From a bacterium BMS3Bbin08 (GTDB lineage Bacteria; Nitrospirota; Thermodesulfovibrionia; UBA6902; BMS3Bbin08): a stretch of DNA of 64,000 nt. Every line of letters starts with the position of its first letter. The first letter of the stretch is position 1. The stretch covers positions 61,280 through 125,279 of the forward strand of contig BDTR01000042.1 of the NCBI GenBank assembly GCA_002897775.1, written 5' to 3'. Positions 22,239 to 26,853 of the stretch are shown here, one piece after another. Made by a program: the position numbers and the translations under genes. The notes beneath the pieces are model-generated. The model was not told the DNA's origin. It searched no databases and saw only the letters and a list, made by a program, of their open reading frames with translations.

Positions 22239-22268
22239 TTGAATTTAAGGGTGCTAATTCTTTATAAT
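22239..22268 (+). promoter_or_regulatory. Sigma-70-like promoter (TTGAAT-N18-TATAAT) upstream of tRNA-Asn
   Basis: TTGAAT at 22239-22244, TATAAT at 22263-22268, about 100 nt upstream of the tRNA 5' end. Confidence 0.4.
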
Positions 22269-22402
22269 GTATTGCTTAGTTCGTTATTTGTATTCCGGGC
22301 AGCCCAGCCATCACGAAAGGTCTGGCAGGTGGCTGTTCAGGATTTGTTCTTTGAAATCATTTTATATTCCCGGGTAGCTCAGCTGGCAGAGCAGGTGGCT
22401 GT

Positions 22403-23035
22403 GCGAGCTCCGACAAGTCGGAGCGAGCAGTGAATTTGCAATGTTTCGTCTTTAACAGTGGCGAGCAACGAAAAGCAGGTGACCCTTGGCTAAGCGTGAA
22501 ACTCGACGCTACGCAGACCGCAGACAGTACTTAATTAAGGCGGTTCATAAGCGCCGCAAGAAAATCCGCCAGATGGCCGTTGATTATAAAGGCGGATGTT
22601 GTGAAGTCTGCGGTTATGATCGTTGTATCGAGGCATTAGACTTTCACCACAATAATTCTTCCGGGAAAGACTTTAGCATCTCAGATAAAGGCTATACGAG
22701 AAGCTGGGCTAAAGTTCAGGAAGAATTAGATAAGTGTAAGTTGCTTTGTGCCAATTGTCACCGCGAAATTCATGCTCAAAGTGCAGCTTTCCCGAGAAAT
22801 CGGGATTGAAAAATCGGGTGAATTCAGGGAAGCCTAAATGGTGAGTTAATCGCACCGTATGGTAATCCTGAGCGAAGTCCGCTGAAGGGTACAAAGTAAG
22901 CGGAAACGTGCAGAGACTAAGGAGTGAGGAACCCAACCAATAAACTCCTATTAGCGCCCGATCCCTAAACCCCGCACAAAAGCGGGATATGGGAATGAGA
23001 TAGTCCAGGCCTTGTGGAAACATAAGGAGCTCTTG
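22403..23035 (+). mobile_element. Group I intron (ORF-containing) in tRNA-Asn
   Basis: 5' exon ends in U and intron ends in G (omega G). Conserved catalytic-core elements: R-like GTGCAGAGACTAAGG (about 22908-22922) and S-like GAGATAGTCC (about 23000-23010) forming P7. HNH ORF sits in a 5' peripheral loop. Confidence 0.7.
22486..22809 (+). CDS. HNH homing endonuclease encoded within the group I intron
   Basis: 107 aa; CCEVCGY...LDFHHNN...CKLLCANCHREIH = HNH (beta-beta-alpha metal) motif with flanking Cys zinc ligands. Confidence 0.8.
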   Translation: MAKRETRRYADRRQYLIKAVHKRRKKIRQMAVDYKGGCCEVCGYDRCIEALDFHHNNSSGKDFSISDKGYTRSWAKVQEELDKCKLLCANCHREIHAQSAAFPRNRD

Positions 23036-23085
23036 TAACCACCCTGTCGGGGGTTCGAATCCCTCCCCGGGAGCCAATAAAAAAA

Positions 23086-23117
23086 TCCCTCGCCTTTTAC
23101 GGCGGGGTTTTTTTATT
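23086..23117 (+). terminator. Rho-independent terminator after tRNA-Asn
   Basis: CCCTCGCC-TTTTA-CGGCGGGG followed by TTTTTTT. Confidence 0.5.
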
Positions 23118-23220
23118 CTATGTTTCAAGGGGGATTTGGATGAGAACCCGAGTGAGTTTACCCTGAGGCGTGAAACAACGAAGGGAATCCCTCTTTGAGA
23201 ATCCGATTAATTTTGCAATC

Positions 23221-23442
23221 ATGTGGTATTTATATATTATTCAAAAAAAAGATCGGTATTACACAGGGATCACTACAAACATTGAAAACCGCTTGCGCCA
23301 GCACGGAAACCAGCCGTTACTCTATATTGAAAACCATGAAAACAAATTCCAGGCAGCAAAGCGGGAAAGAGAGATCAAGGGCTGGTCAAAGCTAAAAAAA
23401 GAAGAGCTGATTGCAAAATTTAACAAGGTGAGTTTACCCTGA
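23221..23442 (+). CDS. Small GIY-YIG nuclease-domain protein (UPF0213/YhbQ-like)
   Basis: WYLYIIQKKDRYYTGITTNIENRLRQH...YIE...EIKGWSKLKKEELI = GIY-YIG core; ORF track starts at 23170 but M at 23221 fits the family. Confidence 0.65.
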   Translation: MWYLYIIQKKDRYYTGITTNIENRLRQHGNQPLLYIENHENKFQAAKREREIKGWSKLKKEELIAKFNKVSLP

Positions 23443-25734: not shown

Positions 25735-26055
25735 TTACTGATCAACATCATCTTTTTTTAACTGCTCCAGATAATCCTCCCATTCGATCGGAAGAAGGTT
25801 TTTTTTCCTGTTGTTGCACTCCTTGCAGGAAGGCACGACATTGTTCTTTGTTGACCTGCCTCCCCTTATAAGCGGCACAACATGGTCCATGGTCAGGTCC
25901 CTGGGCAGTACTTCCCTTTTGCAGTAATAACACTTTCCTTTGGCGCGTTTCTGCTTCCACCACTGCGTTTTCCTGAGGTCCCGCGCCCTGTTCTTTTCCC
26001 TGCTGATCTGCTGATCATCAACAGCCGGCACAAATCGATCCATTCTCTTCCTCAT
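25735..26055 (-). CDS. Stand-alone HNH endonuclease
   Basis: CYYCKREV...DHVVPLIRGG...NNVVPSCKECNNRK = classic HNH with two CxxC pairs. Confidence 0.75.
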   Translation of the reverse strand: MRKRMDRFVPAVDDQQISREKNRARDLRKTQWWKQKRAKGKCYYCKREVLPRDLTMDHVVPLIRGGRSTKNNVVPSCKECNNRKKNLLPIEWEDYLEQLKKDDVDQ

Positions 26056-26112: not shown

Positions 26113-26853
26113 TTAATCAATAACCACATCCTGCATCAGCTCTTTATTCTGACTAAAAAACCTTTCTTTTAAAATACTTACAGCATCTTTCTTGTATTGC
26201 TTCTCTCCAGCAAACATATCAAGGAGATACTCCCTGTGGGTCACTGAAGGAAAATTAGCCTTTCCGATATAATCAGGAAAGCTGCTCCACCGATAGTCCT
26301 CCAAAGACTTTATTTTCCCCCGCCAATCTATCGAGGTTGAACCTCGATAGATGAGCTCCAGGGGGTTGAGATGGATATAATGGGGCAGATACTCAAAATG
26401 CTCCTGACTGATTATTAGTACCCCTTTAAATCTTCCCTGAAAAAGCCCGCCAACCCGCTTATATTTCTGATTGAAATACATGGTGTAACCAGTTCCTAGT
26501 TTCTGCATAAATCTTACAATCCCGTCTCTTGCCTTTTGTCTGATCAGCAAATGGAAATGGTTCGGCATAAGTGTAAAAACCAGGATTTCTACTAAGCGCT
26601 TCCTCGGCGGTCTTTCCTTTTTCAGAGCGCGGGTCGCGCGGAACTCAACATTCATACTGCGAGGATTAAAAAAATATCCGAAATTAGTAACAGGATTTTC
26701 ATCATTAAACTCATACAGGTTTTGTATAAATCGAAAATAATCATCGTCATCCATGAAAATCTTTCTTTTTTCAACTCCCCTGTTAAAGAGATGATAGACG
26801 TAATCATTTACAAATTGAGGTTTTCGCATTGCTTTAAATCTTACCACAGTCAT
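26113..26853 (-). CDS. IS200-like Y1 (HUH) transposase of the REP-associated tyrosine transposase (RAYT) type
   Basis: HUH motif MPNHFHLLI; catalytic Tyr region GTGYTMYFNQKYKRVGGLFQGRFK; flanked by palindromic REPs; start codon lies inside a REP. Confidence 0.8.
   Translation of the reverse strand: MTVVRFKAMRKPQFVNDYVYHLFNRGVEKRKIFMDDDDYFRFIQNLYEFNDENPVTNFGYFFNPRSMNVEFRATRALKKERPPRKRLVEILVFTLMPNHFHLLIRQKARDGIVRFMQKLGTGYTMYFNQKYKRVGGLFQGRFKGVLIISQEHFEYLPHYIHLNPLELIYRGSTSIDWRGKIKSLEDYRWSSFPDYIGKANFPSVTHREYLLDMFAGEKQYKKDAVSILKERFFSQNKELMQDVVID
26325..26353. repeat. REP palindrome copy 2, located in-frame inside the RAYT coding sequence
   Basis: Same palindrome (TTGAA centre) encodes LIYRGSTSIDWR within the transposase ORF. 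Confidence 0.8.

Follow-up and report, generated by a model that had tools for sequence, protein, structure and literature searches.

The 64-kilobase (kb) stretch of contig BDTR01000042.1 from the bacterium BMS3Bbin08 (the whole of it is called the window; all coordinates are window positions on the + strand unless stated otherwise) carries at 22368-23076 a gene for tRNA-Asn(GUU) that is interrupted between anticodon positions 35 and 36 by a 633-nucleotide (nt) group I intron (22403-23035), inside which lies an open reading frame (ORF) for an HNH endonuclease. We consider it very probable that this Thermodesulfovibrionia genome hosts here a mobile member of the tRNA-Asn(GUU) 35/36 class of group I introns. 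Default ARAGORN found zero tRNAs in the entire window, and by the same search no tRNA-Asn besides the split gene occurs there; with intron detection the program returned tRNA-Asn(gtt) i(36,633), with the intron after position 35. The exons are as follows.

22368..22402 (+): tRNA-Asn(GUU) exon 1, positions 1-35, ending C32 U33 G34 U35 (ARAGORN with introns; identical to the intact genes of relatives).
23036..23076 (+): tRNA-Asn exon 2, from U36 to the encoded CCA (ARAGORN with introns; intact genes of relatives).

When joined, the exons gave a canonical 76-nt tRNA-Asn(GUU) with CCA encoded at its end, and only one boundary pair yielded the 7-nt anticodon loop CUGUUAA together with a U as the last exon base, U(-1), at the 5' splice site and a G as the terminal intron base (omega-G). 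An earlier annotation made from the letters of this DNA (the sequence-only reading) had proposed a tRNA-Asn(GUU) split at 35/36 with these same two exons, naming chance resemblance of the halves as the alternative. The spliced sequence was identical to the uninterrupted tRNA-Asn of close relatives at 74-76 of 76 positions, and the halves are therefore not chance matches.

The relatives of the HNH protein define the class to which the element belongs. More than 1100 protein homologues were found, the best 120 of them at 70-93% identity, with the named ones mostly from Omnitrophota metagenome-assembled genomes (MAGs). In a collection holding one genome per species, at least 553 stretches, and at least 553 species-level genomes, encoded an HNH relative, and we examined the best 80 as loci. 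These spanned Omnitrophota (most), Elusimicrobiota, Nitrospirota, Bacteroidota, Acidobacteriota, Melainabacteria, Patescibacteria (one MAG, L063) and others, and in all 80 the HNH gene lay in or beside a tRNA-Asn gene. ARAGORN had pointed to several host tRNAs (Asn, Thr(UGU/CGU), Tyr, Pro and Ser), a picture that was rejected after the U(-1)/omega-G rule and re-splicing were applied: 74 loci and the window resolved uniquely to tRNA-Asn(GUU) split at 35/36. Four of the 80 were cut by a contig end and retained an exon 1 ending GGCTGT, and in the other two (L042 and L080) the HNH gene lay outside a tRNA-Asn bearing a short ORF-less intron. About 21 of the 80 loci ended within about 300 nt 3' of the tRNA-Asn, where contigs often break; heterogeneity within populations between intron-bearing and intron-less copies, or repeated tRNA genes, are possible explanations.

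The intron was recognized by the Rfam model Intron_gpI (RF00028) at 22761-23027 with 79.5 bits against a gathering score of 50 (E=1.4e-18; model positions 1-253 of 253), and the alignment set GUGCAGAGACUA and GAGAUAGUCC on the conserved P7 strands of the model. Combined with U(-1) and omega-G in 75/75 loci, this agrees with the sequence-only reading, which had called the insertion a group I intron from its flanking U and terminal G and had assigned catalytic-core elements to P7. The intron and its paired (P) regions are as follows.

22403..23035 (+): group I intron, 633 nt (Rfam RF00028; ends by ARAGORN and the U(-1)/omega-G rule).
22397..22404 (+): 5' strand of P1, made up of the exon end GGCUGU and intron bases +1/+2 (GC), with the 5' splice site after U22402; pairs with 22781-22788.
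22403..22428 (+): stable hairpin opening the P1 loop on its 5' side, GCGAGCUCCGAC AA GUCGGAGCGAGC, with tandem G-A (the 83-nt leader has a minimum free energy of -26.2 kcal/mol in this fold).
22783..22788 (+): internal guide sequence GCAGCU (P1 3' strand) in the 'SAA' codons of the ORF, at a fixed position directly 5' of P2.
22790..22805 (+): P2 hairpin with GAAA loop, 22790-22795 / 22800-22805 (compensatory changes in 6/6 pairs; 99.5% of cells paired).
22814..22961 (+): P3, 22814-22818 / 22957-22961, enclosing P4, P5 and P6 (RNAalifold consensus and pair counts in 67 introns, as for P4 to P6).
22824-22829 / 22866-22871 (+): P4.
22833-22834 / 22861-22862 (+): P5.
22872-22874 / 22907-22909 and 22878-22883 / 22899-22904 (+): P6.
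22915..22919 (+): P7 5' strand GACUA, pairing with 23001-23005 to close the pseudoknot that forms the guanosine-binding core.
22920..22954 (+): extra peripheral element after P7 and before P3', with hairpin AGGAGU 22920-22925 / ACUCCU 22944-22949, in the place of P7.1/P7.2.
22962..22994 (+): P8, 22962-22965 / 22991-22994, plus an inner CCCGC/GCGGG helix (RNAalifold and pair counts).
23001..23005 (+): P7 3' strand UAGUC (pair counts, 67 introns).
23010..23027 (+): P9 hairpin with GAAA loop (compensatory changes in 6/6 pairs).
23035 (+): omega-G, the final intron base, followed by the 3' splice site (G in 75/75 loci).

We aligned the 75 resolved introns (the window and 74 others) from the end of the C-x-N-C-H codons of the ORF and carried out the fold analysis on 67 of them. 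GCAGC was invariant in all 75 and the sixth base was C or U in 73; this guide stood immediately 5' of the P2 hairpin, usually with a GNRA loop, and was followed by the joining segment J2/3 (UGAAAA) and P3. Each of the 75 loci had the U(-1)-G pair and Watson-Crick pairing from -2 to -4; position -5 was paired in 69/75 and -6 in 73/75. The bases 5' of the guide offered either a P10 of at least three pairs with the 3' exon (25 loci) or an extension of P1 by at least two pairs onto +1/+2 (39 loci), as in the window, where GU at 22781-22782 prolongs P1 in this way. P1 is supported by invariance and position and not by covariation, since the exon hardly varies and the guide does not covary in the few variant hosts. 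An unrestricted search for the best complement of the exon end had picked the CxxCGY codons of the ORF through G-U pairs and was dropped in favor of the positionally fixed GCAGCY beside P2. These codons (GCGGTTAT and variants, at 22609-22616 in the window and present in most loci) can pair with the exon end GUGGCUGU across as many as 8 bases when G-U pairs are allowed, probably as a by-product of the protein motif and possibly as an alternative partner for the 5' splice site. The complementarity of GAGCUCC (22405-22411) and GGAGCUC (23027-23033) was taken as chance near the palindromic GAGCTC; no counterpart was seen elsewhere in an unsystematic look by eye.

The core was supported by covariation. 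RNAalifold, run on the 67 introns from the guide to omega-G, recovered P2, P3, P4, P5, P6, P8 and P9, with compensatory double changes in 34 of 38 predicted pairs; with P7 added, the fold comprised 43 pairs in nine helices, 35 of them changed on both sides. P7 itself consisted of four invariant pairs and one that switched from A-U to U-A in 13 sequences. The paired cells amounted to 96.5%, compared to 73.5% after shuffling and at most 47.6% when the partners were slid, and the covariation score was 0.636 compared to 0.19 and at most 0.12, respectively; none of 500 shuffles reached the observed values. After deletion of the ORF, the minimum free energy structure of the window intron was P1-P9, P1 included, so that both the fold and the guide pairing suggested by the sequence-only reading were recovered, with GCAGCU opposite GGCUGU. 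Of the 67 introns, 22 carried the hairpin inserted between P7 and P3' (that of the window plus 21 of the remaining 66), and compensatory changes in it were seen by eye (L061 has AAGACU/AGUCUU). Introns of subgroup IA carry P7.1/P7.2 at the place of this extra hairpin, and a homologous published intron is labelled IA1. Leaders of the form GCGAG-hairpin-CGAGC, resembling that of the window, were also seen by eye in other loci.

The loop of P1, which measures 380 nt in the window and 303-398 nt across these introns, holds the endonuclease gene.

22477..22482 (+): Shine-Dalgarno-like AGGTGA 5' of the TTG start (read from the sequence).
22486..22809 (+): HNH (His-Me finger) endonuclease ORF, 107 amino acids, TTG start, in the P1 loop (PHROG HNH families).

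A Shine-Dalgarno-like motif occurred in 51 of 75 loci in a rough scan, and TTG was the commonest aligned start codon. The ORF matched several PHROG HNH families (best E=6.6e-30), in agreement with the HNH endonuclease that the sequence-only reading had assigned to it, and had no Pfam match at E<=0.01, scoring 14.2 bits against the PF01844 gathering score of 21.4. All 32 aligned family members (the ORF and 31 others) were matched by Pfam HNH, at sub-threshold values (E 0.0008-1). The sole solved relative detectable by sequence was the HNH domain of McrA (E=0.002). An AlphaFold model of the protein (mean predicted local distance difference test score 74, predicted template modeling (TM) score 0.58) gave HNH nucleases as all of its top Foldseek matches in the PDB, namely T4 endonuclease VII (probability 0.97), Cap5, the Cas9 HNH domain and Gme HNH, all weak (E=0.05-1, TM about 0.4). 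Residues C39, C42, H54, H55, C88, N90, C91, H92 and H96 were invariant in the 32 sequences, and these make up CxxC (C39, C42), HH at 54-55, CANCH at 88-92 and H96, that is, two CxxC pairs and the H-N-H residues. Given these residues and the strong PHROG matches, we accept the ORF as a divergent branch of the HNH nucleases and not as a non-member. Compared with its closest relatives, the ORF had about 0.10 nonsynonymous (pN) and 0.57-0.80 synonymous (pS) differences per site, with dN/dS about 0.1 and synonymous sites near saturation; the ORF is under purifying selection.

The ORF and the ribozyme overlap. The last nine codons double as the guide sequence and P2, the stop TGA (22807-22809) falls in J2/3 after P2, and in 75/75 resolved introns the 3' end of the ORF was fused to guide and P2. 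Loci differ in the frame in which the protein tail is read from it ('SAAS...' in some, 'TQLPRE...' in others), so what is conserved in this stretch is the RNA and not the protein. Were a ribosome to translate the ORF to its end, it would unfold P1 and P2, and therefore translation and splicing of the same RNA molecule should exclude each other.

The tRNA-fMet intron with I-Ssp6803I differs from that of the window in its site (33/34), its enzyme (PD-(D/E)XK, not HNH) and its ribozyme (IC3-type); that a cyanobacterial tRNA-fMet group I intron encodes I-Ssp6803I was reportedly found by Bonocora and Shub in 2001 (cited in PMC3984707). The closest published class was catalogued by Williams (2020; bioRxiv 10.1101/2020.01.27.920355), who listed 21 types of intron-split bacterial tRNAs, among them 'Asn.4Ug' according to the later paper, and was studied by Nakagawa et al. 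(2026; mSystems, PMC13011429). Nakagawa et al. showed in vitro self-splicing at 35/36 for two Patescibacteria introns, placed 25 of 28 such introns in subgroup IA, and reported four Patescibacteria tRNA-Asn introns with HNH genes. Among 4,934 complete genomes they described HNH-bearing IA 35/36 introns as 'found only in Patescibacteria', considered horizontal transfer probably infrequent or limited, and expected that draft genomes might reveal more. The element of the window shares the tRNA, the site CUGU|UAA, U(-1) and omega-G with this class; it is a genuine member of a kind described between 2020 and 2026 and is not new in kind. The same authors found that a 2-nt shift often leads ARAGORN and tFind to report such genes as Thr(UGU) with the intron at 33/34, and the ARAGORN miscall to Thr(UGU/CGU), published for the Asn.4Ug class, recurred in about half of our loci. 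The window ribozyme was 71.5% identical (173/242) to the intron of GCA_951812745.1 (Table S5 of PMC13011429), an ORF-less Nitrospirota tRNA-Asn 35/36 intron of type IA1 that shares the insertion after P7 and has a P1 loop of 33 nt compared to 380 nt in the window. A second Nitrospirota tRNA-Asn intron in that table (GCA_958295805.1, 347 nt) contains, by eye, an in-frame N-terminal 'MAARRRHTNRREYVI' joined to 'CADCHR', and appears to be a deletion remnant of the HNH ORF, as a degenerating homing endonuclease gene would look.

Three things are new here: the host, a Thermodesulfovibrionia (Nitrospirota) MAG; the number of species genomes with HNH relatives, at least 553; and the occurrence of relatives that stand free, by uninterrupted tRNA-Asn in phage tRNA arrays and by ORF-less introns. 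The HNH copies reported in PMC13011429 all come from Patescibacteria, whereas the copy of the window is from Nitrospirota and its HNH relatives are from many phyla. In all 75 resolved introns the ORF lies in the P1 loop and overlaps guide and P2, and we found no description of this arrangement in the text read of PMC13011429. Judging from the genes, HNH-bearing tRNA-Asn introns are far more widespread than published, occurring in hundreds of species, especially Omnitrophota. The sequence-only reading had held an HNH-bearing tRNA-Asn intron to be uncommon; given the 2020 catalogue, the self-splicing and four HNH copies of 2026 and the hundreds of species counted here, this rarity was overstated.

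Relatives of the HNH gene also occur outside introns. At least 548 were found on IMG/VR viral contigs, and the best 80, examined further, were 45-69% identical. Among these, L204-L282 were free-standing within phage tRNA arrays, with a median of seven tRNAs per locus of about 6 kb and a median distance of 21 nt from the HNH gene to the nearest tRNA; this tRNA was an uninterrupted tRNA-Asn(GTT) in 50 of 75 cases. One further contig listed as viral (L203, 2934-3553) carried the intron-borne form; a 2014 review had described phage introns in protein-coding genes only. The two genome loci with HNH genes outside the tRNA came from a Ca. Saccharicenans MAG (L042, 2023-2790), where the gene lay 150 nt downstream of a tRNA-Asn with a 251-nt ORF-less intron, and from a Ca. 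Elulimicrobium MAG (L080, 2501-3210), where it lay about 110 nt upstream of a tRNA-Asn with a 236-nt ORF-less intron; both introns were of the same family. The HNH lineage was thus seen in three states at one target: free-standing by an intact tRNA-Asn, free-standing by a tRNA-Asn with an ORF-less intron, and inside the P1 loop.

Bonocora and Shub are said to have described, in 2009, a free-standing endonuclease route to mobile introns. Collaborative homing, exemplified by F-CphI and the cyanophage psbA intron (PMC6083498; review: PMC3984707), involves a free-standing endonuclease gene next to a target gene whose intron splits the target site; in the published view, endonucleases directed at the place where an intron inserts may afterwards come to reside within that intron (PMC3984707, PMC6083498). 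L042 and L080 share this layout, and the occurrence of the lineage in three states around one target gene fits the published idea. The known cases differ in that they involve phage protein-coding genes and other nuclease families, whereas here the target would be a tRNA gene and the HNH lineage is also found inside the intron. The placement in phage tRNA arrays resembles that of T4 SegB (PMC2330249), a nuclease that favors transmission of the tRNA region in which it is encoded; unlike SegB, a GIY-YIG enzyme, the viral relatives here are HNH proteins associated specifically with tRNA-Asn(GTT). We tentatively suggest, putting the chance a little short of even, that the lineage is a tRNA-Asn-specific homing endonuclease caught in three stages of becoming intron-borne. 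Judged from gene positions, the phage tRNA arrays would represent the first stage, L042 and L080 the second, and the window with the 74 other loci the third, in which the 3' end of the gene doubles as guide and P2.

The proposed mode of action is as follows. The tRNA precursor would be transcribed with the intron inside, the guide GCAGCU (22783-22788) would pair with the exon end GGCUGU with the U-G wobble at the 5' splice site, and the P3-P9 core with its P7 guanosine pocket would carry out two transesterifications. Exogenous G would attack after U22402, and omega-G23035 would then dock so that the exons are ligated to a normal tRNA-Asn. The P1-loop gene has its own Shine-Dalgarno motif and begins at a weak TTG; its product most likely cleaves or nicks uninterrupted tRNA-Asn genes close to the anticodon. 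An intron-bearing copy would then serve as the repair template, so that the empty site receives the ORF, either together with the ribozyme or alone. Since the intron interrupts the target sequence, it would shield the gene of its own host.

We looked for empty sites by scanning metagenomes with the spliced 42-nt anticodon region, and found at least 120 uninterrupted tRNA-Asn genes. Nine of these contigs carried a PorB homologue 68-92% identical to that of the window, five of them at 85-92%; the presence of the intron is polymorphic among close relatives, because contigs this similar in PorB (85-92%) carry the same tRNA uninterrupted. The sequence-only reading had considered the element an active or recently active homing element. 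The intact ORF under purifying selection and the close relatives lacking the intron lend this indirect support. Empty sites, the spread over many phyla and the discordant histories of ORF and ribozyme (below) point likewise, indirectly, to copying of the element into intron-less alleles.

The ORF and the ribozyme pointed to different relatives. The HNH protein of the window was closest (80-85% amino acid identity) to Omnitrophota copies whose ribozymes were 55-62% identical and lacked the insertion after P7. Its ribozyme was closest to that of L011 (83%, same lineage) and then to insertion-bearing introns (67-71%) whose HNH proteins were 64-69% identical, and the ORF and ribozyme similarities to the window were uncorrelated (Spearman rho = -0.11). 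By these comparisons the two parts have separate histories, which speaks for a mobile unit consisting of the HNH gene alone: a tRNA-Asn-specific gene that settled secondarily in the P1 loop of an ORF-less intron, with the ribozyme largely vertical and the intron serving as a harmless landing place that shields the host gene from cutting. ORF-less introns of the same ribozyme type in Nitrospirota, and the same lineage standing free by tRNA-Asn in phages and by tRNA-Asn genes with ORF-less introns, speak for it as well. Nevertheless, ORF and ribozyme were co-inherited within the clade of the window (L011, L283-L286), and the fusion of the ORF to guide and P2 in every resolved intron means that the parts now move or persist together. 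We regard this explanation as quite possible but doubtful in itself, and it refines the mobile-intron explanation without excluding it.

It is less probable, indeed unlikely, that the intron is a resident of Nitrospirota that descends vertically and splices still, the tRNA being needed, with an HNH protein that has ceased to drive homing in this lineage and is inert or kept for RNA folding or a general nuclease role. The closest full copies outside the population (L283-L286) showed 81-87% DNA identity over ORF and ribozyme and stood in different gene neighborhoods, the similarity ending at the tRNA ends. That these closest copies are in related lineages suits a resident intron, as do the MamF/MmsF-like gene of L283 (a hint of magnetotactic Nitrospirota), the exons of L011 (Nitrospiraceae; 98.7% identical), the near-saturated synonymous sites, and the ORF-less or ORF-remnant versions in complete Nitrospirota genomes, which are expected late in a homing cycle. 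However, the ORF is intact and, with dN/dS about 0.1, the protein is still under selection; its catalytic and zinc-binding residues do not vary, empty sites exist in close relatives, and the nearest kin of the ORF sit in a different ribozyme lineage, which requires movement of the ORF at some point. It is highly improbable that the tRNA-Asn halves are remnants of an insertion-disrupted gene with unspliced RNA, for although default tRNA finders see no tRNA and the degenerate 5'-half copy just upstream attests that tRNA fragments do occur at the locus, the exons are 76/76 identical to intact tRNA-Asn of relatives, all ribozyme helices, the guide, U(-1) and omega-G are intact, class members self-splice precisely (PMC13011429), and the window has no other tRNA-Asn.

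Several points weigh against a mobile intron as we propose it. The polymorphism may reflect precise intron loss and not gain. Apart from comparisons with the MAGs of the same population, synonymous sites approach saturation for every relative sampled, and there was no sign of very recent transfer into the lineage of the window, the closest others being those at 81-87% DNA identity. The guide does not covary where hosts differ at tRNA position 31 (6/75 mismatched at -5). The HNH assignment lies under the Pfam cut-off and its fold matches have weak E-values. The host genome may also hold a second, uninterrupted tRNA-Asn, the check covering the 64-kb window.

The surroundings of the split gene contain further features, all outside the intron.

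22239..22268 (+): candidate promoter of the tRNA precursor, TTGAAT, 18 nt, TATAAT, 10/12 (consensus scan alone), upstream of the pseudo-exon and tRNA.
22286..22337 (+): degenerate 52-nt copy (pseudo-exon) of the tRNA-Asn 5' flank and 5' half, ending GGCTGTT (local alignment).
23088..23115 (+): terminator-like hairpin followed by a T-run, 3' of the tRNA (sequence scan; conserved in the intron-less relative L155).

The upstream copy scored 32 in the alignment, compared to a maximum of 28 in 2000 shuffles. A 13-mer at 22324-22336, which the sequence-only reading had noticed as a copy of the exon 1 end and a possible homing or duplication scar, is real: it matches exon 1 at 12 of 13 bases and is the best-kept end of the 52-nt copy, and GCAGGTGGCTGT occurs at 22325 and 22391 and nowhere else. 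It is not a homing scar, for the closest relative L155 has an orthologous copy at its intron-less tRNA-Asn. The copy was found in 0 of the 74 other intron-bearing loci, and by these comparisons it goes back to an older duplication at the locus that has nothing to do with the intron. The pseudo-exon ends GGCUGU|U between the promoter-like site and the tRNA and, if co-transcribed, would hypothetically offer the guide a decoy second 5' splice site. Upstream of the tRNA in L155 (9549-9700) the 5' end of tRNA-Asn is partially repeated twice (TCCCGGGTAGCT...), each time followed by the TCCCGAnGCGTCGGGA hairpin; these copies, one orthologous and one partial, are each fused to a TCCCGA...TCGGGA hairpin and constitute a small family of local repeats. 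Also upstream of the L155 tRNA, 11 nt (CGGGTGAATTC) match the P3-P4 segment; this match was rejected as an intron remnant, with about 0.09 such matches expected by chance by our own estimate, and Rfam at E<=0.1 found no intron upstream of that tRNA.

Two further nuclease genes lie nearby. A small GIY-YIG gene (23170-23442, +) stands just 3' of the split tRNA-Asn, and likewise in L283 (4816-5082) and L284, which share the arrangement despite different neighbors; the GIY-YIG proteins of the window and L283 are 33% identical. We rejected this gene as part of the mobile unit, the DNA similarity to L283 ending at the tRNA 3' end and the proteins being this divergent. Small GIY-YIG genes were also present on 22 of 120 contigs with uninterrupted tRNA-Asn (e.g. 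L085, L091, L095, L107 and L125), about 15-170 nt from the tRNA in those inspected, and on five of the 80 intron-bearing loci. GIY-YIG may thus be a second nuclease family tied to tRNA-Asn genes, as judged among tRNA-Asn contigs alone. A second HNH gene (25735-26055, - strand), about 2.7 kb 3' of the tRNA, has clear Pfam HNH/HNH_5 matches and adjoins an IS200-like Y1 transposase gene (26113-26853, - strand); it was considered as kin of the intron ORF and is unrelated (BLASTP E=4.8). Other genes of the window encode IF-2, UvrB, UvrC, the PilQ secretin and signaling proteins, and the best named relatives of UvrB (78-87% identical) are nearly all Nitrospirota or Thermodesulfovibrionia. The same gene order and the exact HNH protein recurred in the MAGs GCA_011040835.1 and GCA_011041435.1, which were 100% identical to the window over the 1 kb compared. 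The host is thus a member of the Nitrospirota and no Patescibacterium.

The results correct the annotation of the window, since a stretch that is tRNA-free by standard tools holds what may be the tRNA-Asn of the genome. Missed tRNA genes of this kind affect MAG completeness estimates, a point argued likewise in PMC13011429. If the HNH lineage is indeed passing through the three proposed stages, phages would have carried it from one bacterial phylum to another, and the family would document, as a natural series, how a mobile group I intron is assembled. The published picture, in which HNH-bearing tRNA-Asn introns occur in Patescibacteria alone and seldom undergo transfer, would then be contradicted. 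With its one conserved 76-nt target, the family offers a tractable natural system for the old question of how homing endonuclease genes and self-splicing introns unite.

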